Virus record (IMG/VR): IMGVR_UViG_3300036715_002842
Coordinates: 32,001-96,000 of that record
Strand: one strand, 5' to 3'
DNA from: a virus
Length of the DNA stretch: 64,000 nt
The notes below the pieces were generated by a model, which saw only the letters and a program-made list of their open reading frames with translations, searched no databases and was not told where the DNA came from. This document shows, in pieces, positions 52 to 33,303 of the stretch; position 1 is the stretch's first letter; each line of letters starts with the position of its first letter. Made by a program: the position numbers and the translations under genes.

Positions 52-126
52 TGGTGCCCCCGGTGGGGTTCGAACCCACGACCTGAAGATTATGAGCCAT
101 CTGCTCTGCCGCTGAGCTACAGGGGT
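52..126 (-). tRNA. tRNA with CAU anticodon (Met or Ile2)
   Basis: Reverse complement folds as a cloverleaf with anticodon loop CTCATAA, T-loop TTCGAAC and encoded CCA. A1-C72 mismatch; Met versus Ile2 cannot be resolved. Confidence 0.85.
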
Positions 127-168
127 ATTGGTATATTGGTTTGACTTGAGGAAAGATGGATTTCGGAA

Positions 169-252
169 TGGTACCCCTTCTCGGACTCGAACCGAGACGC
201 TCGAAAGCATAGGACCTAAACCTATTGACTGGACCAATTCGTCTAAAGGGGC
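169..252 (-). tRNA. tRNA-Leu(UAG)
   Basis: Anticodon arm ATAGG-TTTAGGT-CCTAT, long variable arm, A73 and CCA. Confidence 0.9.
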
Positions 253-277
253 ATTTGATCTTCTGTCCTTACTATTG

Positions 278-362
278 TGGAACCCGCAACCGGGTTTGAA
301 CCTTACCACACGCGGATATCAGTTCCGCCACGCTCGCATTGGTTGATGAATTAGGCGGATTC
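278..362 (-). pseudogene. Degenerate tRNA-like sequence
   Basis: Ends in GCGGGTTCCA, has a GGTTCAAACC T-loop-like element and a GCGGA-ACTGATA-TCCGC hairpin, but no normal D arm. Confidence 0.45.
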
Positions 363-515
363 ACCACTGGTCGGTTTTCCCTCCCCATTAAGACCAGTGC
401 GCACCAGCCTTAACTACGGTCGACCTTTACGGTTCTCTGGGGCTAAGCCACTTGAATCCGATAGGTGGTACCCGTTCTCGGAAATGACTTAACGATACGA
501 AGAGCCGTCAAGAAT

Positions 516-591
516 TGGAGCCCACAACCGGGTTCGAACCGATGACCTCCTGATTACAAAGCAGGTGCTCTACCAACTGAGCTATGCAGGC
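516..591 (-). tRNA. tRNA-Thr(UGU)
   Basis: Canonical 76-nt cloverleaf, loop TTTGTAA, CCA end. Confidence 0.95.
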
Positions 592-610
592 AAAGGTGTC
601 GGACTGAAAC

Positions 611-1048
611 TTGAAGGGCCATCCGACTGCCACTCAAAGGTGGGTGCATATATCGCTAGGCCGAAGGTATTTTGGATGCGGTAGATCTAAGAGATCCGAA
701 GTCCTTGACAGTTTTGGAAAGAAGGTTCTTCTTGACTCGACTTACGAATTGGAGGTTTCGGAACTTTTGAATCAGCTTGGAATTCGTTGGATTAGACCCA
801 AACCATTGAGTTGGTATTTGGAGGGCAAGCAGCACCTATACCACCCAGATTTCTTTTTAACGGATTTCAATCTCTATCTGGATCCGAAGAACGACTATCT
901 AGCTCGAATTGATGTAGGGAAAATTTCCCTAGTAAGTTGGCAGAACGCAGTTGTAATTCGAATTCTAACCAAGAAGCAAATTACACTTGAGTATCTGAAA
1001 GGATTGGTAGCCCCGGAGAATTTTGAAATCTCGACCTACCGCGTGTAA
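611..1048 (+). CDS. PD-(D/E)xK endonuclease domain, likely a truncated homing endonuclease
   Basis: DSTYE...HLYHPDFFLTDFNLYLDPKN resembles phage PD-(D/E)xK nuclease domains. Antisense to the tRNA array, 3' end overlaps tRNA-Val, and the start is a weak TTG. Confidence 0.55.
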   Translation: MKGHPTATQRWVHISLGRRYFGCGRSKRSEVLDSFGKKVLLDSTYELEVSELLNQLGIRWIRPKPLSWYLEGKQHLYHPDFFLTDFNLYLDPKNDYLARIDVGKISLVSWQNAVVIRILTKKQITLEYLKGLVAPENFEISTYRV

Positions 1049-1079
1049 GGCGATTGCTCTACCTCTGAGCTACAGGGCT
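1005..1079 (-). tRNA. tRNA-Val(UAC)
   Basis: Cloverleaf with loop CTTACAC, A73 and CCA. Confidence 0.9.
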
Positions 1080-1080
1080 A

Positions 1081-1735
1081 AGGTCGGGGATTCTTCAGCG
1101 GCGCCACCTAGGAGATCCCCTACAATTGCCGCCTGCTGGGGACTAGCATTGCTGCCCCACCCTCACCACCAGGTCTACCGAGTTAGGGCCTGATCCTGGA
1201 TTAAGATCCGGCCCCCTTGACCGGTGCGCACAACTGATCTTGTTCGGGGAACTGGAGTCCCGGCCGGATGACAACTCCAACTCCCCTTCAACCACCGCCC
1301 TCGAGGGGTAACAGTGAACCGAAGTCCACAGTGGTCGATCTAGTTCGGGGACCCACCACCCGCGTGGTTGCAGGTCCCCTTCGGACGCCTGACGGCCAGT
1401 CCGATCTTTAAGATATTCGGGAGTTCACGCCTCACTCCCTAGCGTCCAAGACTTTGCGGCGAAGTGACAATCCTAAGATCGTCTCCGAAGTTGCAGAGCA
1501 TCTTCGTGTAGCGCGTGGATCCTTTTGTAACTTTGACAGTTTCCAACAACCTTTAGAGGGAAGTCTTTCACTATCCTGGAGATTGCGGGAGTAGGTGCTG
1601 TGTCGGGCACCACGACCTTCAGAAGCAAGAAGAGGCTTGAATGACCGTCCAAGTATCTCTCCACCCTCACACGCGGTAGGCGTGGGGCTCGTCCTTCTGT
1701 TCCAGACCGGTTTCTGGCTGTGTACCGGTAAATGC
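1081..1735 (-). ncRNA. Candidate large structured ncRNA A (~650 nt)
   Basis: No credible ORF. Continuous series of GC-rich hairpins and a repeated junction motif, located between two tRNAs of one operon. Confidence 0.55.
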
Positions 1736-1810
1736 TGGTGGACCTGGAGGGAATTGAACCCCCGACATCTGCCTTGCAAAGGCAGCGTTCTCCCGCTGAA
1801 CTACAGGCCC
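1736..1810 (-). tRNA. tRNA-Ala(UGC)
   Basis: GGGCCTG acceptor strand with G3-U70, loop TTTGCAA, CCA. Confidence 0.95.
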
Positions 1811-1846
1811 GTGCTGTCAAACAACTTAATCTTTAACCTACTTTGT

Positions 1847-1921
1847 TGGTACTCCCAGTTGGAATCGAACCAACGTCTAGAGCTTAGAAGGCTCTTGCTA
1901 AATCCCCTCAGCTATGGGAGC
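1847..1921 (-). tRNA. tRNA-Arg(UCU)
   Basis: Anticodon arm AGAGC-CTTCTAA-GCTCT, CCA end. Confidence 0.9.
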
Positions 1922-1924
1922 GAA

Positions 1925-2007
1925 TGGAGGCCCGGTGGAGAGTCGAACTCCTAACCTTTCGGACGAGGGTTGCAATCTCGCGCCAGTCCACACCAGCTTC
2001 CCGAGCC
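1925..2007 (-). tRNA. tRNA-Cys(GCA) with tRNA-Sec-like (selC*-like) fold
   Basis: GCA anticodon and U73-CCA. Also a 6-bp D stem with 4-nt loop, extended anticodon stem, CC-GAAA-GG variable hairpin and 4-bp T stem. Confidence 0.8.
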
Positions 2008-2025
2008 TAGGTCTTGCATCTTGAA

Positions 2026-2102
2026 TGGTAGCCCAGGTGGGAGTCGAACCCACAGAACCCAGATTTTGAATCTGGTACCTATACCAATTCGGTTACTGAG
2101 CC
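2026..2102 (-). tRNA. tRNA-Leu(CAA) lacking the long variable arm
   Basis: CCAGA-TTCAAAA-TCTGG anticodon arm, 5-nt variable loop, A73 and CCA. Confidence 0.88.
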
Positions 2103-2291
2103 ATTGAGTACGTGGCGGACCCTTTCATAGTTTCCACCCTTTGGAGTCAATCCAACTTGTAGTAGGATTTGACGAATGTTTTTGCAAGTTTTAGACGCTT
2201 CTGAAATTTGCTCATCTGTTACTTTTGTCTTGCAGTTGATGTTTCTTCCTCGGTACGTTTCAGTTTGGCTATGACAGTTTGGACATAGAAG
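2103..2291 (-). pseudogene. HNH homing endonuclease C-terminal remnant
   Basis: Manual translation LLCPNCHSQTETYRGRN...NIRQILLQVGLTPKGGNYERVRH matches the end of the HNH motif typical of phage tRNA-region endonucleases. No start or N-terminal half. Confidence 0.75.
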
Positions 2292-2305
2292 AGAATTTTA
2301 AGGAT

Positions 2306-2587
2306 TGGTGCGCCCGGCCGGAATCGAACCGGCACGCTCTTACGAACAACAGATTTTCATCCTACTTCATGTTGCCATGACCGTTTCCGTTGTAGGCTGG
2401 ACTATCCCTTGACCTTATCCGAGGACTTAGGCCCCCACCGTCTAGTCTCTACACCTTCCTATTTCTAGGCTTGGCTCGGGATTGTCCTAAGGAGTTTCCC
2501 CGAATTTGATGGGATTCACGCTGGAGGTTTCCGACCCAGGTGCTCAAATCATAAGTCTGTGGCGTCTACCAGTTCCGCCACGGGCGC
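2306..2587 (-). tRNA. tRNA-Leu(UAA), split by a group I intron (exons 2553-2587 and 2306-2357)
   Basis: Joining ...CAGACTT to AAAATCTG... restores the loop CT-TAA-AA. Long variable arm and CCA. Confidence 0.92.
2358..2552 (-). mobile_element. Group I self-splicing intron (IC3-like, 195 nt, no ORF)
   Basis: Starts after U and ends in G. Core motifs CAAATTCGGGGAAAC, GTAGAGACTAGACGG and AAGGGATAGTCC. Inserted U^AA in the anticodon, as in cyanobacterial and plastid tRNA-Leu introns. Confidence 0.92.
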
Positions 2588-2716
2588 AAAAGTTAGGGCT
2601 CGCTACGACACTTCCCACCTATCGATGGATCAACATGCCACCGGGTCTTACGGCCACACCTAACACAACCTCCGATTTACCCAAGATAATCGGTTTAAAA
2701 TACTGCTTGGGGCAGT

Positions 2717-2804
2717 TGGAGCGGGAGATGGGACTTGAACCCACGATGGACTTTCGTCACGTCAGCTTGGAAGGCTGATGCCTTAACCACTAGGCTACAC
2801 CCGC
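2717..2804 (-). tRNA. tRNA-Gly(UCC) with an atypical long variable arm
   Basis: GCGGG acceptor, TCAGC-CTTCCAA-GCTGA, U73-CCA and a 17-nt variable region containing GAC-GAAA-GTC. Confidence 0.88.
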
Positions 2805-2939
2805 TTTGGAGAAACCTGGAAAATTTCATCCAGATTTCAAGGTAGAAGGAAAATTTGTGGCAACGTGATGACATTCGCTACTACGTATCCCCAAGCCTAA
2901 CACTCTAGGTAGCTTGGTTTATGTCAAGAGGACTTTTAT

Positions 2940-3308
2940 TGGTGGAGGTGGGGGAAATCGAATCCCCGTCCGAAAAGCTTCAGAAGGTAATTCATTCACA
3001 GGCTTAGTTCGAATCTAGTGACCTCTGTGGAGGATCGAACAACTCCAATCGAGGACTTGTTCCTTTGTCTCAACTGGAAGCCAGGAACACTCTTCCAATC
3101 CAGTTTATCTCTTCACCTCAGCAGGACGAATCCACCCTCGGATCTGATGCAACTAGGCTACTAAACGATCACCTAGAGGTTGCTGCTTACGCAGCCTGGA
3201 GAAAACGATCGTTTTCGGCAGTTGTGTTTGTTGGGCTTTTTAGGAGGCCAGCCCACCTCCGCCTGCACTACACTCCGGATTAGCCATCCGTCGAAACCTG
3301 GCACCCCC
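2940..3308 (-). ncRNA. ssrA: tmRNA, tag peptide (A)AENDRFLQAA* at 3187-3219
   Basis: 5' GGGGGTG...TTCGAC and 3' GGACGGGGATTCGATTTCCCCCACCTCCACCA with G3-U70. Internal resume frame ends Ala-Ala-TAA. Confidence 0.96.
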
Positions 3309-3441
3309 AAGAGTTGGATTGGCTTGTAGGACCAATCCTGAGAGATCGTTACATTTGGTTTGCACCTACTAACGATTCACACCTTAGCACCGGTTCACCT
3401 TCCACCGAAAGGTTCCCCAAGTTGCTTAGACCTGGGAATTG

Positions 3442-3512
3442 TAGGTCCAGAGGGTATCGAACCCTCTTCCTCGCCTTAAAAGGGCGATGCTTCACCTTAA
3501 AGCTTTGGACCC
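3442..3512 (-). tRNA. tRNA-Lys(UUU), CCA not encoded
   Basis: TCGCC-CTTTTAA-GGCGA anticodon arm and GGGTCCA/TGGACCT acceptor. Confidence 0.88.
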
Positions 3513-3604
3513 GTTTGATGGGGATAGGAGGCAATGACCCATTCGGAGCCGCCTACCGTTAACCCATGCTGGACCCCACGGTCAGACCAGCATGCCCAAG
3601 ATTC

Positions 3605-3680
3605 AGACCAAAGAGTGGGTTCGAACCACTGTCCTCCCCAGACGTGCTGGGCGCTCTGACCGGCTGAGCTACCTTGGTCC
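3605..3680 (-). tRNA. Atypical tRNA-like RNA (ACG in a 5-nt loop, no U33, no CCA)
   Basis: Canonical D and T arms and acceptor stem, but the anticodon arm is CCCAG-CACGT-CTGGG. Confidence 0.6.
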
Positions 3681-3684
3681 TTTC

Positions 3685-4524
3685 CAGCTAGTGCACTAGC
3701 GTCAACAAGCCCGGATGTGGGTCTAGAACTCCACGGGGCTTGCAGGGAACTGATTGGTGGTAGCCCGATCCTCTGCTACTGAGCAAGTTGACCGGCACCT
3801 CATCGGGATGACGACCAACTGGCACCGAAGTGCACCACGGGGCTTGCAGGGAACTGATTGGTGGTAGCCCGATCCTCTGCTACTGAGCAAGTTGACCGGC
3901 ACCTCATCGGGATGACGACCAACTGGCACCGAAGTGCACCAAAGAACTACTTCACTCCCTCCTTTCTCCGGAGCAGCTCGAACTTCGCTGCCGCGGCCAG
4001 AAGGGATCCTGACTGAACCACCGCCTGCAACTGCGAGACGGTCATCCTACGCACGCTCTCTGCGTGCTTGCTTGATTGTGCCATGGGGCACCTCCTTCCA
4101 ACAAGTTGTTGGAAGGTCTTACGTGTCTGCGTACCTCATCGTTGCTCCTTTTGGAAAAGTGGAAGGATCGGGTTCGGTGTTATTTCACCCTCCAGGTCGT
4201 GTAACGTCCTAGGGAAGTCCCACCCGATTTCTTGAAGATATTTGGTTGGGGATTGGTGGCCACCGCACCCCAACCTACCTGTCGGTCCTATTGCCGTGGA
4301 TCGTTCATTCCCAACCTCCACGAGGAGTAGGTCCTTTTCGTCCCTGTTGGCAGCGACCGGTCTGTGCCGGGCTCACCGCTAGTTCTGTGGAGTCAGGGCT
4401 CCAGACATCCCGAGGGGAATTTGCACGGGACGATCTTGTGTTACAGAAAGGTACGAGTAGGAGTTCGCAAAGCTCCATTCTCCACTCATTGCGGAGATCC
4501 TGCACTTGGAGGTGATACTCGTAA
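3685..4524 (-). ncRNA. Candidate large structured ncRNA B (~730-840 nt)
   Basis: No credible ORF. Many perfect helices, e.g. 4452-4459/4516-4523, 4094-4103/4107-4116 and 4051-4067. Lies inside the tRNA operon. Confidence 0.55.
3731..3941. repeat. Exact tandem duplication of a 104-bp unit
   Basis: 3731-3834 is identical to 3835-3938. Confidence 0.95.
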
Positions 4525-4601
4525 TGGTCGGCTATGAGTGATTCGAACACTCGACCTTCGCGACCCAAACGCGACGCGCTACCAGGCTGCGCTAATAGCC
4601 G
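4525..4601 (-). tRNA. tRNA-Pro(UGG)
   Basis: C1-G72, loop TTTGGGT, A73 and CCA. Confidence 0.95.
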
Positions 4602-4798
4602 GGAGGACTCGGTTTTAGTGGAGTTGACTGGAACCCGACCCCGAGTCACCCAGTTGCGCTGCTCCGCTGGGATGCCGGAGGTATTCACCGCTTTCGCGGG
4701 GCGCTGGAGGTCCCCTCAGTCAGTGGGAACCGGGGTCTAACACCTGATGCGCTTTTCGCTCTTGGGCCGCTTTTCATGACCGTTCAGGCAGTTACCTT

Positions 4799-4872
4799 TG
4801 GTTAGGGTGGTAGGATTCGAACCTACGAGGGGAGCGTCAAAGACTCCTGGTTTACCGCTAGCCTACACCCCA
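4799..4872 (-). tRNA. tRNA-Gln(UUG)
   Basis: U1-A72, GGAGT-CTTTGAC-GCTCC, CCA. Confidence 0.92.
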
Positions 4873-16826: not shown

Positions 16827-17105
16827 CTAACTAGCGAGCGGCAGCTTTTCAATTTCTGCCATGAATGAAGGTGGGGTTGTGAAAGCTGCCGCTCGAGGTA
16901 TCTTAAAGTACGGATCGGTAAATCCGATGGCACCTTCAGAGATGGCATCCTTAATAAGGAACCGTGGAGTGTCCAGGATGACCAGAGTTTCGTTCTTCCA
17001 CTCTTCCGGATACTCTAGAACGAACTGAGCAATAGCGTGCCCAGCTTGAGACATCTTTTGTCCGAAAGAAAGTTTTTCGTCGATCAGAATGTAGAGCTTA
17101 GTCAT
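16827..17105 (-). CDS. Pth2-like peptidyl-tRNA hydrolase
   Basis: KLYILIDEKLSFGQKMSQAGHA, WKNETLVIL, FTDP and C-terminal KLPL match the phage Pth2-type pattern. GAGG RBS before ATG 17105. Confidence 0.75.
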   Translation of the reverse strand: MTKLYILIDEKLSFGQKMSQAGHAIAQFVLEYPEEWKNETLVILDTPRFLIKDAISEGAIGFTDPYFKIPRAAAFTTPPSFMAEIEKLPLAS

Positions 17106-17409
17106 CGCTTTCCTCGTCTTCATCGTTCTTCTTGATGAGATAGGGTTTGAGAGGGTCCATATAAATGACCCCATCCTTCTTGAACGCTTCCTCGATTGCA
17201 GACATGGGAAACTTGAAAGTGTAATAGTTGTCGTTACAACTGTAAGAACAACGGCAAGGATTCACTTCCCGAATATTCGCGATAAGATGGTCACCCTCCA
17301 TTCGAAATCCCTGCAACCTAAAGTTGCTGAAGAGCTTGGAGTGATAGAAGGCGTCCTTGAGCTTCTGTTCAAACTTCTTCGTGGCTTGAAGGGTTTCGGT
17401 GTAAGACAT
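17098..17409 (-). CDS. Hypothetical protein
   Basis: GGAG RBS before ATG 17409; overlaps the Pth2-like start. Confidence 0.65.
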   Translation of the reverse strand: MSYTETLQATKKFEQKLKDAFYHSKLFSNFRLQGFRMEGDHLIANIREVNPCRCSYSCNDNYYTFKFPMSAIEEAFKKDGVIYMDPLKPYLIKKNDEDEESDD

Positions 17410-17499
17410 TGGAATTCTCCACAAGTTGTAAAAGTTGATTGACAAACCGGATATGCAGCTCCGTTAACATCCTCTTCAAAGGCTTGCTGTCTAACCTCT

Positions 17500-17673
17500 T
17501 CAGATTGTGGGATGGTAATCCTTTCCAGCAATCTTTACCCAGTTTGACATTCCAATCAAGAGGTGACCGTGCTGAGAAGGGGAGAAGGGGACTAGCCCCT
17601 TCCCATCACAGTGCAGACTTGGCTTAGACGATTCGAAGACCGTCCGGCAACCAAGACAGATCCACTCTTTCAT
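17500..17673 (-). CDS. Small Cys-containing protein (57 aa, not in the ORF track)
   Basis: TGATG coupling to the upstream gene; MKEWICLGCRTVFESSKPSLHCDGKG... Confidence 0.5.
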   Translation of the reverse strand: MKEWICLGCRTVFESSKPSLHCDGKGLVPFSPSQHGHLLIGMSNWVKIAGKDYHPTI

Positions 17674-18119
17674 CACTTCCCCTCTTGCATGTCGAGGAGG
17701 ATCTGCGTACTCAGACCCTGCTGGAAGTCCAGAGTCTCCTTACGGAAACGCTTCTTCTCTTCCCAAGCGGCGATGTCCTCAGCAATCATTTCCTTCCATT
17801 CCGCGAGCTGGCGCTGAGAATAGTGGTCGGCTTGCTTGTGGAAGTAAGAACGGCTGGGATTCCGGTTGGGCTCGATCTGCTCGAGGGTACGTCCACGGAG
17901 AAGGCAGTAAGCGATGTGCTTCGCTCTCCAATTCTGATCGTCGCAGCTGTAGAAGTTCTCGGGCTTGATTGCCAGGAGCTTGGCGCGAAGTTCTTCCTGT
18001 TGCTCCCCGGGAATGGAAGGCTTGAAGGTGGCATCGTAACGCCGTTCCCAATGCCTGCAAGCCACTTCGTGCTTGAGCTCTGCCTTGATGGTTGCGATCA
18101 GTTCTTTGTAAGTGGTCAT
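17673..18119 (-). CDS. Phage protein of unknown function (RAKHIAYCLLRGRTLEQIE motif)
   Basis: GGAG RBS. I recall this motif from phage proteins found near Pth2-like genes, but that recollection is unverified. Confidence 0.75.
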   Translation of the reverse strand: MTTYKELIATIKAELKHEVACRHWERRYDATFKPSIPGEQQEELRAKLLAIKPENFYSCDDQNWRAKHIAYCLLRGRTLEQIEPNRNPSRSYFHKQADHYSQRQLAEWKEMIAEDIAAWEEKKRFRKETLDFQQGLSTQILLDMQEGK

Positions 18120-18121
18120 TA

Positions 18122-18173
18122 GATTCTCCGAAATTTGAAAAGTTTGAGAAAAGGTTTTCGAATTTGGAGAATC
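18122..18173 (-). promoter_or_regulatory. RBS-sequestering hairpin
   Basis: GATTCTCC (18166-18173) pairs with GGAGAATC (18122-18129), which contains the RBS of the 148-aa gene. Further pairing is possible inside the loop region. Confidence 0.7.
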
Positions 18174-18198
18174 ACTAAGGTGGGCGGTTCTACGTCAT
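18172..18198 (-). other. Leader minigene 2: ATG ACG TAG (readthrough MT*NRPP then TAG TGA)
   Basis: AAGGAG RBS 6 nt upstream of the ATG. Confidence 0.7.
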
Positions 18199-18219
18199 CG
18201 TAGGCTCCTTTACGAACAG

Positions 18220-18260
18220 AAAAAACCCAACAGAGGCTGCTGGGCAGCTGATCCGTTGGG
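18220..18260 (-). terminator. Intrinsic terminator/attenuator in the leader
   Basis: CCCAACGGA/TCTGTTGGG stem with an inner GCTGC/GCAGC hairpin, followed by T6. Confidence 0.75.
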
Positions 18261-18320
18261 GAGGAAGTGTTCTTGCGAACACAGATTTTTGTGGTGTGGC
18301 AAAACTTTGGAGCCGCGAAT

Positions 18321-18329
18321 CTACTTCAT
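18321..18329 (-). other. Leader minigene 1: ATG AAG TAG (readthrough open to TAA at 18210-18212)
   Basis: GAGGGA RBS 7 nt upstream; 36 further sense codons span the terminator. Confidence 0.65.
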
Positions 18330-18342
18330 GGTCTTGTCCCTC

Positions 18343-18380
18343 AAATGGTTGGTACTACCCAAAATGGTTGGTACTACCCA
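18343..18380. repeat. Two tandem copies of AAATGGTTGGTACTACCCA (19 bp)
   Basis: Seen directly, immediately downstream of the predicted transcription start. Confidence 0.85.
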
Positions 18381-18387
18381 AAGACTA

Positions 18388-18416
18388 ATTATAACCCCGG
18401 ATCTTTCGTTTGCCAA
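18388..18416 (-). promoter_or_regulatory. Sigma70-type promoter of the Pth2 operon
   Basis: TTGGCA-N17-TATAAT. Confidence 0.75.
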
Positions 18417-18480: not shown

Positions 18481-19518
18481 TCATGGCTGACTCCCAGAAG
18501 TAAGGACGTTTCGTTCCATGGGCTGACCGTGCATCCAGTGTTTCACGGTCTGGACATGGGAGGCCCGGACGAACTTCCCAACCTTGACCCGAAACTCAGA
18601 GAAGGGGAATGCCTCGGCCACCCGGACCACATAGCCCTCCTGGCGATCCCATTTGCGCTTGTCCCACAAGGCGCGGATGGCCTTTTCGTCATAGATTCCG
18701 TCGTAGAGTACGGGAACAGGAGTAATCCCCAACAGGGCAAACCATTCCAGCGTCTCGTCCCAGGGGAGGCAGATGTTCCGGTCATCCCAGATGGAGAACC
18801 CAAGCAGGTAGCTGGGAAGGCCGTCGTAGCCGATGGAATGCTTGGCGTAGAGGTTTTCGCCGCACACTCGCCATCCTTCCGGGATGTCCATACGGATCTG
18901 GGACCAGAATTGCTTGACCCAGTTCCGGCTGGGGTGACTGCGCCCATCCAGGCTCCGAGCGTGGATGTGATCCTGGTAGAGGGACGTGTTTTCTCCGTCC
19001 ATTTTCTCGGTAACGATCACCCGCTTCCCTGCGAGGGCTGCGGTGGAATCCATCATTCGGTCGTCGTCGTTCATTCCCTCCGACCATGGCAGATGGTGGG
19101 TCCTGGGATACTTGACCCAGTGGGTGAATAGGCTAAGAACGCCGCCAATGGCGAGCACCTTCTGAACGCTCTCGTCATGGAACAACTCCCCCTTGAGGCG
19201 CTGGCCATTGGGGAGGATGGGATTCCCCCACTTGTCATAAGGCTGGTCCGCGTAGAGATGTGGTGGGAGCAAAGATTTGGTGATCCCGCAGGCGTTACGA
19301 ACATCCTCGGTGGAGATCTCTGTGGTTTCGCACCGCATGTGGTGATCGCCACAAACGGAAGCGCCGTTGTCGAGGTAGTAGCCTCCGTCCGGCCACAGTC
19401 TGCGTTCCAGGATGTGGTGGGCGTCCGCAGCAGGTTCCCCGCAGAAGACACAGCGGCCCTTGGCGCGAGCAAACACGGCCTCGCGGAAAGCGTCTCTGGT
19501 TAGCAGCAGGGCGTTCAT
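18481..19518 (-). CDS. HNH domain fused to an ATP-dependent RNA ligase (Rnl2-like)
   Basis: N-terminal CVFC...DAHHI...NGASVCGDHH HNH motif. KYPRTHHLPWS, TEKMDGEN (motif I), GENLYAKHSI, EGYVVR and KFVR ligase motifs. Confidence 0.88.
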   Translation of the reverse strand: MNALLLTRDAFREAVFARAKGRCVFCGEPAADAHHILERRLWPDGGYYLDNGASVCGDHHMRCETTEISTEDVRNACGITKSLLPPHLYADQPYDKWGNPILPNGQRLKGELFHDESVQKVLAIGGVLSLFTHWVKYPRTHHLPWSEGMNDDDRMMDSTAALAGKRVIVTEKMDGENTSLYQDHIHARSLDGRSHPSRNWVKQFWSQIRMDIPEGWRVCGENLYAKHSIGYDGLPSYLLGFSIWDDRNICLPWDETLEWFALLGITPVPVLYDGIYDEKAIRALWDKRKWDRQEGYVVRVAEAFPFSEFRVKVGKFVRASHVQTVKHWMHGQPMERNVLTSGSQP

Positions 19519-19639
19519 TGGGTGGTTCCTTTCGAGTTGGATTCATTACATTTCAGACGCTACCGTATGGCGTACCTGTGGGTGTATCCCCTTGAATTCT
19601 GGCTCGTAGTGTTTCAAAGCGGTTTCACTCTTAAAAAAG

Positions 19640-19711
19640 TCCCCACGGTGGTAGTCGAAACCACGACACAGTGTTTTAGAAGCACCTGCTCTACCGTTGA
19701 GCTACGTGGGG
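19640..19711 (-). tRNA. Amber-suppressor tRNA (anticodon CUA), CCA not encoded
   Basis: CCCCACG TA GCTC AACGGTA GAGC A GGTGC TTCTAAA ACACT GTGTC GTGGT TTCGACT ACCAC CGTGGGG A. Canonical spacing places CUA at 34-36. Confidence 0.85.
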
Positions 19712-19825: not shown

Positions 19826-20815
19826 CTATTCATCTGAGTGCGCCAGGGCAGCGAACAGGCACCCCTTCGCGATAGCCTTCAGAGGATCCTCAGCACGAAC
19901 TACCTTGCCAATCTTGATGGGGAGGTTCTGCGCCTTGAGAGCCTCTTCGAACAGTTCGATGAACCCGCCGGGAAGAGAGGTTCCACCTGCGACTGCGATC
20001 TTGGGCGGCTTCTGGAAGTCTGGTAGCTTCGCCATGCCAAGGAGTTTGTCCTTGATTTGCTTGGCTACGTACTCCAACATCGCCTTGTAGTAGTACGAAA
20101 TGGCTTCCTCGGTCTGATCCTTGGGCTTGCGGAGATCAATGATCCCCTCCTTTGCGAGCATAGCCTTGACCGTGGAGATACCCAGAGAGGTGGAAACGTT
20201 CTTGTCAATGTAGTCACCGGAACGGGCTACGGAGAAGTTGAAGGCTTCCACACTCAATTGTGCGCAGCAGACATTGCACATGCCAGCGCCCCACGAAACA
20301 CCAAAGCCAGAAAGATTGTCCTCGAGGAGTTCACTGTAAATGACCGACAGACCTTCATTGAGTGGTACTGGAGTGTAACCCATGTCGGTTAGGATCTTGT
20401 TGAACACATTCGAGTGGTAAACTGCATTGAACTCCTGATCGACTGGATCCCCTGGGACGGAGTAGACCACCTTTTCTTTCTTGGTGGCAGGAGCCCCAAG
20501 GGACTCTTTGATGATCGCCTGGATGATTGGCAGCGCCTTAATCTCATGGGGATTGAGAACACCTTGCGACATAGGTCGCTTGGGCTCACTGTTGAAAGCG
20601 CTAGCGAGCTCCAGTGCCTGCTGACCTAAAGCAGAAATTTCCCCCTCAAGTTCCACGTAAGGTGCACCCACCTTCTTGAGCATCGATTTTACGAAGGGGG
20701 ATTTCTCTACTGGTACGAAGATATTGCGGAAAGCTTTGTACTCGAAGCTCTCCCCATCTGCACCAACCCTCGCAGCTACGATATTTCCAGTTCCCAAATC
20801 TAGTCCACAGGGCAT
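19826..20815 (-). CDS. Actin-like ATPase (MreB/FtsA/ParM superfamily)
   Basis: GLDLGTGN (phosphate 1), LNEG, SWGAGMCNV (phosphate 2), VAGGTS (adenosine) and DPLKAIAKG. Confidence 0.88.
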   Translation of the reverse strand: MPCGLDLGTGNIVAARVGADGESFEYKAFRNIFVPVEKSPFVKSMLKKVGAPYVELEGEISALGQQALELASAFNSEPKRPMSQGVLNPHEIKALPIIQAIIKESLGAPATKKEKVVYSVPGDPVDQEFNAVYHSNVFNKILTDMGYTPVPLNEGLSVIYSELLEDNLSGFGVSWGAGMCNVCCAQLSVEAFNFSVARSGDYIDKNVSTSLGISTVKAMLAKEGIIDLRKPKDQTEEAISYYYKAMLEYVAKQIKDKLLGMAKLPDFQKPPKIAVAGGTSLPGGFIELFEEALKAQNLPIKIGKVVRAEDPLKAIAKGCLFAALAHSDE

Positions 20816-31485: not shown

Positions 31486-33303
31486 ATGAATACCTGGTAC
31501 AAGAGATATCTTGACTTAATTGGATTGAAGTATCCGGGTGACAGTATTTTTATCAAGAAGAACCCAGAGTTCTGTTCAAGTGTTCTCAATGCAACTTCTA
31601 AATGTTCTTCAAACCTCCCCATCCTTTCAAGGGTTCTTCTTCTAGATATGGGTTTGGAGATTGAACCTCCATGTATAATTTGTGGTAATAAATCTATTTG
31701 GTGGAAGGATCCACACAATCCTTCCAGCGGTTGGAAGGATCACACCTGTTCTGCCTCTTGTAGTCGAAGGGCCGTAAGAGTTCTTCGTGGTGAGACTCTT
31801 ATAGAAAAGCAGAAACAAACGGTTAGGAATCGTTATGGTGTTGAGAATGTTGCGACGCTGAAAGAAGTTCAAGAGACTATTAAGAAAACCAACTTGGAGA
31901 GGTTTGGAACCGAAGCCTCTTCGAGGTCCTTGGTTGTACAAGAAAAGAAACTTAGAACTATTCGAGAACGTTATGGTGTTGATAACGTTATGCAGGTAGA
32001 TAATATTAGAGAGAAAGTAGAGAAGACTTGCCTTGAGAAATTTGGTTTCAAGCATGCTGCTAGTTCTGAAACCGTGAAAGATGCAACAAAGAAGACTAAC
32101 TTGGATCTGTATGGTTGCCCTTACCCAATGCAGAATATAGATGTTAAAAGGAAGAGACTCGAAACTTTTCGAGAGAGATTCAGTGTAGATCATCCAATGC
32201 AGACTGAAGAATATAAGGTCAAGCTCAAATCAACTTTGAAGGTATTATATGGAACCAGAAAAATCGGTTGGCGCTATAAATGCCCAACCGATGTGGCAAT
32301 AGAAAAGTTGAAATCCCGTGAATTTTGGAATTCTGAACATGTTCAGAATAAGAAGAGTCTTCATCAAATAGCGAGAGAACTTAACACTACCAGTTCGACC
32401 GTAGCAATTTATTTCTTCAAATACAGCGGTTTACCCAAAATTCTAATTCGATCTGGCGTTTCTTCCGAGGAACAGAACTTCTTTTCCTTCTTGGAATCAA
32501 AAATAAGTGGGATTCTTCAATCTATTCCTTTAAGTTCCCTCGGTGGGAAGAGTAAAAGATCCTTGGATGCCTACATTCCACAGCTAAATTTAGCATTTGA
32601 ATACAATGGGGTATATTGGCATTCAGAAAAATTTCGTTCTTCTAGGGAGCACTTAGAGAAGACCTTAGAGTGTGAAAAACTTGGCATACGGCTTATCCAC
32701 GTGTGGTCGGACGATTGGATATTCAAACAAGAACTCGTGAAGAAAAAGATTTGTTCGTTACTGGGTTTAGAATTCCAAAAGGTATATGCGAGGAAGTGTG
32801 CCATCGTTTCTGTAGATAGTAAGAAGAAGAAGAATTTTTACAGCACGAACCATATCAAGGGAGATGGTGTTGGCTCAATAAGTTATGGTCTCCAATACGG
32901 TGGGCAACTTGTAGCACTTATCACTTTCAAAAATATTGGGAAGGGAATTTACGATCTCAATCGTTACGCAACCTCTTGCAGTGTTGTAGGTGGATTCAGC
33001 AAATTACTCAGTCATTTCAAGAAAAATACTAATTGGTCAAAAATCTATACCTACGCAGATCGAAGTTGGAGTCGTGGGGATGTGTATCTTAAAACTGGAT
33101 TTACCTTCCTGTCGGAAATTCCACCCTCTTTTCATGGTCTAGAAAAAGACCGAAGAGTTAACCGCTTGAATTATACCCACAAAAAACTATCCCGTAGGTT
33201 CCCAACTGCGGTTGGAACCCAGGATCAGATCATGAGTAGTGCCGGTATACTTAGAATCTGGGATTGTGGGCAGTTGAAGTTCGGAGTGACTAACCATGGC
33301 TGA
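31486..33303 (+). CDS. Putative free-standing homing endonuclease, paralogue of 21695-23380
   Basis: RYGVENV/TNLERFG repeats, AFEYNGVYWHS, LIHVWSDDW, and YDLNRYATSCSVVGGFSKLL identical to the paralogue; AT-rich. Confidence 0.8.
   Translation: MNTWYKRYLDLIGLKYPGDSIFIKKNPEFCSSVLNATSKCSSNLPILSRVLLLDMGLEIEPPCIICGNKSIWWKDPHNPSSGWKDHTCSASCSRRAVRVLRGETLIEKQKQTVRNRYGVENVATLKEVQETIKKTNLERFGTEASSRSLVVQEKKLRTIRERYGVDNVMQVDNIREKVEKTCLEKFGFKHAASSETVKDATKKTNLDLYGCPYPMQNIDVKRKRLETFRERFSVDHPMQTEEYKVKLKSTLKVLYGTRKIGWRYKCPTDVAIEKLKSREFWNSEHVQNKKSLHQIARELNTTSSTVAIYFFKYSGLPKILIRSGVSSEEQNFFSFLESKISGILQSIPLSSLGGKSKRSLDAYIPQLNLAFEYNGVYWHSEKFRSSREHLEKTLECEKLGIRLIHVWSDDWIFKQELVKKKICSLLGLEFQKVYARKCAIVSVDSKKKKNFYSTNHIKGDGVGSISYGLQYGGQLVALITFKNIGKGIYDLNRYATSCSVVGGFSKLLSHFKKNTNWSKIYTYADRSWSRGDVYLKTGFTFLSEIPPSFHGLEKDRRVNRLNYTHKKLSRRFPTAVGTQDQIMSSAGILRIWDCGQLKFGVTNHG

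Follow-up and report, generated by a model that had tools for sequence, protein, structure and literature searches.

An amber-gated leader minigene as a candidate read-through sensor for phage suppressor tRNAs

Why would a phage place a stop at the third codon of a short reading frame, behind a strong Shine-Dalgarno (SD) sequence, and continue that frame in phase through two prolines to a second stop at the foot of a hairpin that holds the start signal of its next gene? This question is raised by a 64,000-nt stretch of viral DNA (the window; positions 32,001 to 96,000 of IMG/VR record IMGVR_UViG_3300036715_002842), in which such a leader minigene precedes the gene for a 148-residue protein (17673-18119, minus strand). 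The strand of the leader also carries, 1.5 kb further upstream, a lone amber suppressor tRNA gene, tRNA(CUA) (19639-19711; found by ARAGORN, 57.7 bits with the Rfam tRNA model), a distance larger than in most members of the leader family described below. From a comparison of this locus with similar loci in other phages, we consider it probable that this is a translational attenuator of the leader-peptide kind, with read-through of a stop codon by a phage suppressor tRNA as its input.

The leader, the elements upstream of it and the operon downstream are all read on the minus strand. The SD of the minigene, AAGGAG (18205-18210), is separated by a 6-nt spacer from the open reading frame (ORF) ATG ACG TAG AAC CGC CCA CCT TAG TGA (18172-18198), which translates as M-T-amber-N-R-P-P-amber-opal; the ATG occupies 18198-18196, the first TAG 18192-18190, the codons AAC CGC CCA CCT 18189-18178, the second TAG 18177-18175 and the TGA 18174-18172. 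Within this final TGA begins the 5' arm of a 52-nt hairpin (18122-18173), an inverted repeat (I1) that occurs only once in the window and whose outer arms, GATTCTCC and GGAGAATC, are extended by an imperfect inner helix to ~18 pairs in total. The 3' arm, GGAGAATC, carries the SD of the 148-residue gene, with GGAG at 18129-18126, 6 nt 5' of the ATG at 18119. The 101-nt leader folds with an energy of -23 kcal/mol (z = -4.3), and none of 200 shuffled sequences was equally stable. Minigene and hairpin are both present as a preliminary description of this DNA had stated, with the 5' arm overlapping the last stop and the ribosome-binding site of the 148-residue gene in the 3' arm. An Rfam search of the leader region returned no family.

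We propose that the element would work as follows. The leader (18210-18172) would be translated from its own strong SD. Should release factor 1 (RF1) prevail at the codon-3 UAG, the ribosome would depart 18 nt short of the hairpin, leaving the SD of the 148-residue gene paired and the operon untranslated. When tRNA(CUA) decodes the UAG, the ribosome would proceed via Asn-Arg-Pro-Pro to the second stop, a UAG with a UGA behind it, immediately next to the 5' arm. Since termination after a C-terminal proline is slow, the ribosome would be expected to linger there and keep the 5' arm single-stranded, freeing GGAG and AUG for a second ribosome, and the 148-residue protein, two small ORFs and a PTH2-like hydrolase would be made. 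The operon would, in effect, report whether amber suppression works. A C-terminal proline can stall termination, peptide release after proline being inefficient with both RF1 and RF2 (a passage of PMC7246954, citing Hayes 2002 and Pierson 2016). For the present leader, we infer the stalling at Pro-Pro-stop, the unmasking of the SD by a parked ribosome and the sign of the regulation from the arrangement of the sequence.

Within this genome alone, the minigene is compatible with chance. AAGGAG-N4-9-ATG occurs at 11 sites on the two strands of the contig, only five of which start ORFs of at least 60 residues; by our own estimate, ~5 such sites would arise by chance and ~0.5 would lead into a minigene. 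A 30-codon frame that starts with GTG also ends in ATG ACG TAG. These figures, together with a hairpin energy that is unremarkable in this genome, would suit a chance SD-ATG-stop placed before a hairpin that is an ordinary stem occluding a ribosome-binding site, or a protein-binding palindrome, and that has no relation to amber suppression. Since neither the chance expectation nor the hairpin energy speaks for the element here, the test had to be comparative.

Fifty-four jumbo-phage loci were gathered, with no constraint on the leader, via the RNA ligase gene that lies between tRNA(CUA) and the leader in the window (18481-19518, minus strand; Pfam PF09414, E = 3e-32). A tRNA(CUA) is present in just one of them, L043, which is also the sole locus with a weak match to the 148-residue family. 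Its leader, AAGGAG-N8-ATG AAG AAG TAG ACT CGC GCC ACT CAG CCG CCC TAA (M-K-K-amber-T-R-A-T-Q-P-P-stop), sits 5' of a gene for a 170-residue distant homologue of the gated protein, with a PTH2 gene and tRNA(CUA) downstream. The motif ARAFNIIYGMVRGKTYRQIE of this protein matches WRAKHIAYCLLRGRTLEQIE of the window protein (hhalign E = 2e-4, with only 46% probability over 23 residues), and the two also share an N-terminal pattern (alignment A2). The Pro codons differ, being CCG CCC in L043 and CCA CCT in the window. In the predicted fold of the L043 leader, which is not significant alone (z = -0.9), the sequence that begins at the stop is base-paired to the SD, at its AGG, and to the surroundings of the AUG. 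We scanned 1.86 Mb of jumbo-phage DNA (the RNA-ligase loci and the whole contig, both strands) for an SD core, an ATG, one or two codons, a stop, two to nine codons ending in Pro-Pro and a stop. The leader design was found in two places only, the window and L043, and with TAA or TGA in the position of the first stop the same DNA gave zero occurrences. An initial scan, whose pattern was over-fitted to TAGANNCGC, had yielded only out-of-frame gene starts and L043 itself, and was set aside.

The design recurs in IMG/VR. A scan with the pattern AAGGAG-N5-9-ATG-NNN-TAG-N6-24-CCN-CCN-TAR returned 85 stretches, and in 61 of the 80 loci listed the Pro-Pro-stop is in frame with no intervening stop. A control scan in which TGA replaced TAG returned 29 stretches, six of them in frame; this yield is roughly the chance background, though two of the matches are real opal leaders, to which we return below. 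Together with the window and L043, the IMG/VR matches make up 53 distinct leaders, ~40 of them credible. The GC content of leader loci ranges from 22 to 58% and their arm sequences differ, so they are not assembly duplicates of one phage. Recurrence of M-x-amber-x-x-P-P-stop upstream of homologues had been named at the outset as a check on the attenuator model, and it was found, in L043 upstream of a distant homologue and in ~40 more IMG/VR leaders. A comparison of local coding density gave no separation of TAG-recoded from other leader phages. We also noted a locus, L086:3985-4050 (+), with two ambers and two Pro-Pro pairs in one frame (M-W-amber-V-K-T-S-P-P-amber-G-N-S-R-S-P-P-TAA), where a hairpin arm begins at the second Pro-Pro.

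Suppressor tRNA genes accompany these leaders. ARAGORN detected tRNA(CUA) in 45 of 63 leader loci, and its strand is that of the leader in all 43 counted. It follows the gated gene within 150 nt in 14 loci and precedes the leader by ~100 nt in four, while the loci without a suppressor tRNA are mostly evident chance matches or end at a contig edge. The two opal leaders lie beside a tRNA of matching anticodon. L195:817-1410 reads ATG TTG TGA ... CCA CCT TAA directly behind a tRNA(UCA), and has an 11-bp helix (CCUUAAUAUAU/AUAUAUUAAGG) that covers the SD; L199:9439-9950 reads ATG AAG TGA ... CCA CCG TAG, with a tRNA(UCA) immediately 3' of the gated gene. The gated protein of L195 is 62% identical (E = 3e-53) to that of L096, a UAG/CUA locus, and the gated protein of L199 is 56% identical (E = 2e-37) to that of L140, also a UAG/CUA locus. 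In two homologous locus pairs, the sensor stop codon and the anticodon of the tRNA predicted beside it switch together, and we see in this the best comparative argument that the leader stop is decoded by the tRNA.

The linkage also bears on a reading in which the anatomy is the same and the quantity sensed is RF1 activity at UAG, for example if RF1 were depleted or inhibited in infection, with the tRNA only a contributor. Read-through is set by the ratio of tRNA to RF1, sequence data alone do not separate the two, and manipulation of release factors by code-switching phages has been suggested (Borges preprint). However, a sensor of RF1 would need no adjoining tRNA, whereas tRNA(CUA) is tightly linked on the same strand, and the concerted switch between UAG/CUA and UGA/UCA indicates the neighbouring tRNA as the partner. 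We consider RF1 sensing unlikely.

If the input is the tRNA, the output would depend on the hairpin, which we compared across 43 leaders. Arm pairing was scored when 5 nt or more of the SD/AUG zone were paired, in the minimum-energy fold, with the 28 nt that follow the second stop, and it was found in 33 of the 43. In 31 of these 33, the 5' arm begins 0-11 nt from the first base of the second stop. Duplexes of cognate arms have a mean energy of -8.66 kcal/mol compared to -5.47 kcal/mol for non-cognate ones, and none of 20,000 permutations reached the cognate mean; the cognate partner ranks first in 15 of the 43 leaders. What is conserved in the predicted hairpin is its structure and not its sequence, and its arms covary. 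The amber and the second stop are never separated by fewer than four codons, though two were allowed, so a ribosome at the amber should stay clear of the helix. In most leaders, the SD of the next gene lies 44-60 nt beyond the second stop.

This layout argues against a reversed polarity, whereby the parked ribosome or read-through itself would repress the operon and its genes would be made only before the suppressor is active. A stalled ribosome can recruit nucleases or transfer-messenger RNA (tmRNA), and the phage does encode a tmRNA. At 44-60 nt past the second stop, however, the SD is too far away for steric blocking in most leaders, and it pairs with the very stretch that would lie under a parked ribosome, as in attenuators known to activate. 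That the switch works in the repressing direction is, in our judgment, quite unlikely.

Several features of the 43 leaders were not forced by the scan. The second stop is TAA in 40 leaders, though TAG was equally allowed, and TAA is not readable by tRNA(CUA); an amber backed by TGA, as in the window, is found in the other three. The base after the amber is A in 27 leaders and G in 12 (a purine in 39 of 43), and a purine at this position favours suppression over release. These features (post-amber base, TAA second stop and stop spacing) fit the read-through model. Eleven different pairs of codons encode Pro-Pro, and the residue before it is K in 20 leaders and R in six. The geometry in the preliminary description is borne out across the family for the distance of at least four codons between the stops and for the 5' arm at the second stop (31/33), but its amber second stop turns out to be a minority form (3/43).

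The same features bear on a further explanation, that Met-Thr-UAG is a minigene of the lambda bar type. In lambda bar minigenes, a two-codon product drops off as peptidyl-tRNA and burdens the peptidyl-tRNA hydrolase of the cell; here, drop-off would load the hydrolase, the PTH2-like gene of the phage would compensate, and the codons after the UAG would not be translated. This would account for a very short ORF with a strong SD and for an operon that ends in a PTH2-like gene. It offers no account of an in-frame Pro-Pro-stop that is kept with different Pro codons, nor of the preference for TAA as second stop, the pairing between the post-stop segment and the SD, or the joint switch of stop codon and anticodon, and we rate it as very unlikely. 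As for the chance origin that the window alone would allow, it has to contend with the leaders of L043 and of ~40 other phages, the control scan with TGA, the tRNA linkage, the covariation of the arms and the codon/anticodon switches, and we regard it as extremely improbable. Arm pairing, same-strand tRNA(CUA) and the two opal leaders beside tRNA(UCA) provide comparative support for the read-through attenuator.

Some observations nevertheless weigh against this reading. The hairpin of the window is AU-rich and of moderate stability (-15 kcal/mol), and ranks 35th among 106 upstream folding energies of gene starts in this genome. The second stop of the window is itself UAG, and a ribosome under suppression may park instead at the UGA, 3 nt downstream, with a Pro-Pro-X peptide. 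In ten of the 43 leaders, pairing with the SD is not clear. The IMG/VR scan pattern forced AAGGAG, TAG at codon 3 and Pro-Pro-stop, so that its matches cannot demonstrate the conservation of these features, and the leader comparison leaves out the contigs of the close homologues P0002-P0008. Finally, three huge-phage loci found by protein homology alone offer a picture that is mixed, though consistent. L200 has a leader reading M-S-stop-S-R-P-P-stop and two tRNA(CUA) genes. L202:1042-1090 (+), in record LR756500, reads M-K-amber-I-K-I-T-I-R-G-P-T-Y-L-F-stop beside a tRNA(CUA); since it keeps the amber without Pro-Pro, Pro-Pro is common in the family but not universal. L201 has neither leader nor tRNA(CUA).

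What would be switched on is an operon led by the 148-residue protein, which is all-helical and carries the motif R..HIAYC.LRGRT..QIEP (homologues P0002-P0009, alignments A1 and A6). Its eight metagenomic homologues all start with an invariant MTTYKE. It belongs to no Pfam or PHROG family. The AlphaFold2 model consists of six helices, with a pLDDT of 94, and has no convincing structural relatives: Foldseek gave none with E < 1, the best Z-score with VIA-align was 5.5 and the protein Atlas gave nothing usable. By sequence, the sole match to a solved structure is to HisE, which is marginal (E = 0.007). A helix-turn-helix of the LuxR or sigma region 4 type, considered because of the RGRT..QIE motif, is not claimed, the rows in question being weak (DosR and SigA, probability <0.2). 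No match was found by tblastn in cultured and GenBank phages, either for this protein or for the fusion protein of L111, and locus and DNA searches with the 148-residue family in viral, metagenome and genome contig collections returned no relative.

The downstream proteins of the family leaders share the motif R..H[IV]AYC.LRG[RK]T..QIEP with the 148-residue protein. In L111:4131-4685 (-) and L123:2409-3074 (-), a PTH2-like domain forms the C-terminal part of a fusion with the helical HIAYC-RG-QIEP domain, which argues that the 148-residue family and the PTH2-like hydrolase act together; in L129, a PTH2-like ORF lies directly downstream of the leader. In the window, the operon continues with a 58-residue ORF that contains a CxxC motif and overlaps the end of the 148-residue gene by 4 nt (17500-17676; no family match), a 115-residue ORF (17098-17445; no significant family match) and, as the last gene, the short PTH2-like ORF (16827-17174). 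The latter matches phrog_1866 (E = 2.2e-5) over residues 18-70, limited to its N-terminal half, and gives no match to Pfam PF01981 even at E = 10; the PTH2 protein of L043, which does match PF01981 (E = 3.4e-14), matches phrog_1866 as well. As a guess, the gated proteins might handle the consequences of read-through (by rescuing peptidyl-tRNA or ribosomes) or tune suppression.

Upstream of the leader, the window contains a possible first gate. A sigma-70-like promoter, TTGGCA-N17-TATAAT (18388-18416; 11 of 12 consensus positions), is the putative start of the leader transcript and resembles CCCTTGACAATT, a recurrent motif of the intergenic regions of this genome. An extended -35 motif, ATACCCTTGACAATT, likewise recurs in several intergenic regions of the whole contig and is probably the early promoter class of this phage. 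A T4-style late promoter inside the hairpin, which would yield a transcript without the 5' arm, was considered and dropped: the loop holds no recurrent promoter motif, the recurrent motif of this genome being CCCTTGACAATT. Directly after the promoter come two exact tandem copies of a 19-bp unit (18343-18380; repeat family D1), and then the first of the two amber minigenes, ATG AAG TAG (18329-18321). Beyond its amber, the frame (18210-18329), M-K-amber-I-R-G-S-K...F-F-C-S-stop, is open over 36 codons. It crosses a stem that resembles an intrinsic terminator (18260-18226) and has six T behind it (together 18220-18260; terminator scan and fold), and the TAA that closes it (18212-18210) overlaps the SD of the second minigene. 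In ATG AAG TAG ATT, the second residue (K) and the residue that follows the amber (I) are those most common in the family. This minigene may act as a transcriptional gate ahead of the translational one, whereby read-through would carry a ribosome across the terminator; of the 43 leaders compared, that of this phage is the sole one with such an extra minigene upstream.

The virus contig that contains the window is 105,575 bp long. In nucleotide sequence, its RNA ligase gene shares 68% identity with the ligase genes of CcrSC and CcrBL9, which are Caulobacter jumbo phages. A look at synteny next to the ligase in CcrSC and in RsoM2USA revealed no leader module. The genetic code of the contig is standard, with ORFs of at least 100 residues covering 89% of it, and TAG terminates 22 of its 88 ORFs of at least 150 residues. 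We checked the TAG-terminated genes of this genome for back-up stops and found no signal. Apart from the lone tRNA(CUA), the window has an array of 12 tRNA genes and the tmRNA at 52-4872 (ARAGORN). The tmRNA (2940-3308) lies near a match to a group I intron inside the array (2377-2562, minus strand; Rfam RF00028, 57.5 bits). A gene of the actin-like Volactin family (19826-20815, minus strand; PF25216, E = 2e-79) is found just upstream of tRNA(CUA).

How does this element compare with known systems? The leaders of ermC (ErmCL), cat and cmlA, as well as SecM-secA, also consist of a short leader ORF with an SD, a ribosome that is held, and a hairpin whose 5' arm lies at the hold site and whose 3' arm sequesters the downstream SD. 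The window reproduces both parts of this anatomy, with a leader ORF that has its own ribosome-binding site 5' of the regulated gene (AAGGAG-N6-ATG, 18210-18196) and an SD held in a helix whose 5' arm sits at the end of the leader (18173-18122). What differs is the input: it is an antibiotic or a secretion defect in ermC, cat and SecM, and here it would be read-through of a codon-3 stop by a suppressor tRNA, the variable element being not a ribosome-bound antibiotic as inducer but an in-frame stop matched to the neighbouring tRNA. The hold differs too, as those leaders arrest ribosomes in mid-ORF while the hold proposed here is Pro-Pro-stop, at termination. In the arrest peptides of the RAPP/RAGP type (ApdA, ApdP and SecM), a basic residue likewise precedes Pro-Pro at the stall point and the leader unmasks a downstream ribosome-binding site. 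The putative arrest here would involve N-R-P-P (window) or mostly K-P-P (family) directly before a stop, in peptides of 7-12 residues, and not the R-A/G-P-P core.

In prfB, which encodes RF2, an early in-frame stop also serves as a sensor of decoding and termination capacity, but through a +1 frameshift within the gene and with a release factor as partner, whereas the present leader would act by read-through of a separate ORF and unmasking of a ribosome-binding site, with a tRNA as partner. Lambda bar minigenes are likewise phage ORFs of two to three codons with an SD and a functional tie to peptidyl-tRNA hydrolase; unlike the leader of the window, they have no conserved in-frame continuation, no hairpin over a ribosome-binding site and no suppressor tRNA partner. 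Engineered counterparts are switches with a TAG in a leader peptide, used with unnatural amino acids, where translation past UAG that depends on charged tRNA(CUA) turns on downstream genes (PMC6412442, section 6). Those are synthetic, built on tna and trp leaders and transcriptional, whereas the leaders described here are natural, widespread in phages and proposed to act on translation initiation. The leader of the window shares the traits of its own class: a UAG at codon 3-4 after the SD, four to seven further codons that end in Pro-Pro-stop, a same-strand tRNA(CUA), a gated gene of the HIAYC-RG-QIEP helical family (alignment A6) and a PTH2-like ORF in the operon. Such a leader is not described in the papers on stop-codon recoding, in the theta-ribozyme paper on phage suppressor tRNAs or in papers that name both suppressor tRNA and peptidyl-tRNA hydrolase; an overview of jumbo-phage genomics notes PTH2, does not mention suppressors and describes no such leader. 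The comparison supports the view that this would be leader-peptide attenuation with a new kind of input, for which we found no published description in the literature on recoding and phage suppressor tRNAs.

Taken together, these findings lead us to a wider proposal, which we advance tentatively and with a little less than even confidence: phage suppressor tRNAs would be accompanied by a dedicated read-through sensor in cis, its codon co-evolving with the anticodon, that switches on a helical protein and a PTH2-like hydrolase only while the stop is overridden, and in this phage two gates in series would give a steep (roughly squared or higher-order) response. If true, this would amount to a naturally occurring circuit by which the state of the genetic code is read out in an infected cell. 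Many phages with a standard code carry amber or opal suppressor tRNAs without a known target, and the leader would supply a defined natural substrate for them. Recoded phages must time their code switch, and the leader makes it possible to study with simple reporters how a phage senses its own change of code and responds to it. The helical family and the PTH2-like hydrolase would then be a gene set whose expression is tied to suppression, and the leader itself a ready-made natural part for gene control that depends on amber suppression.

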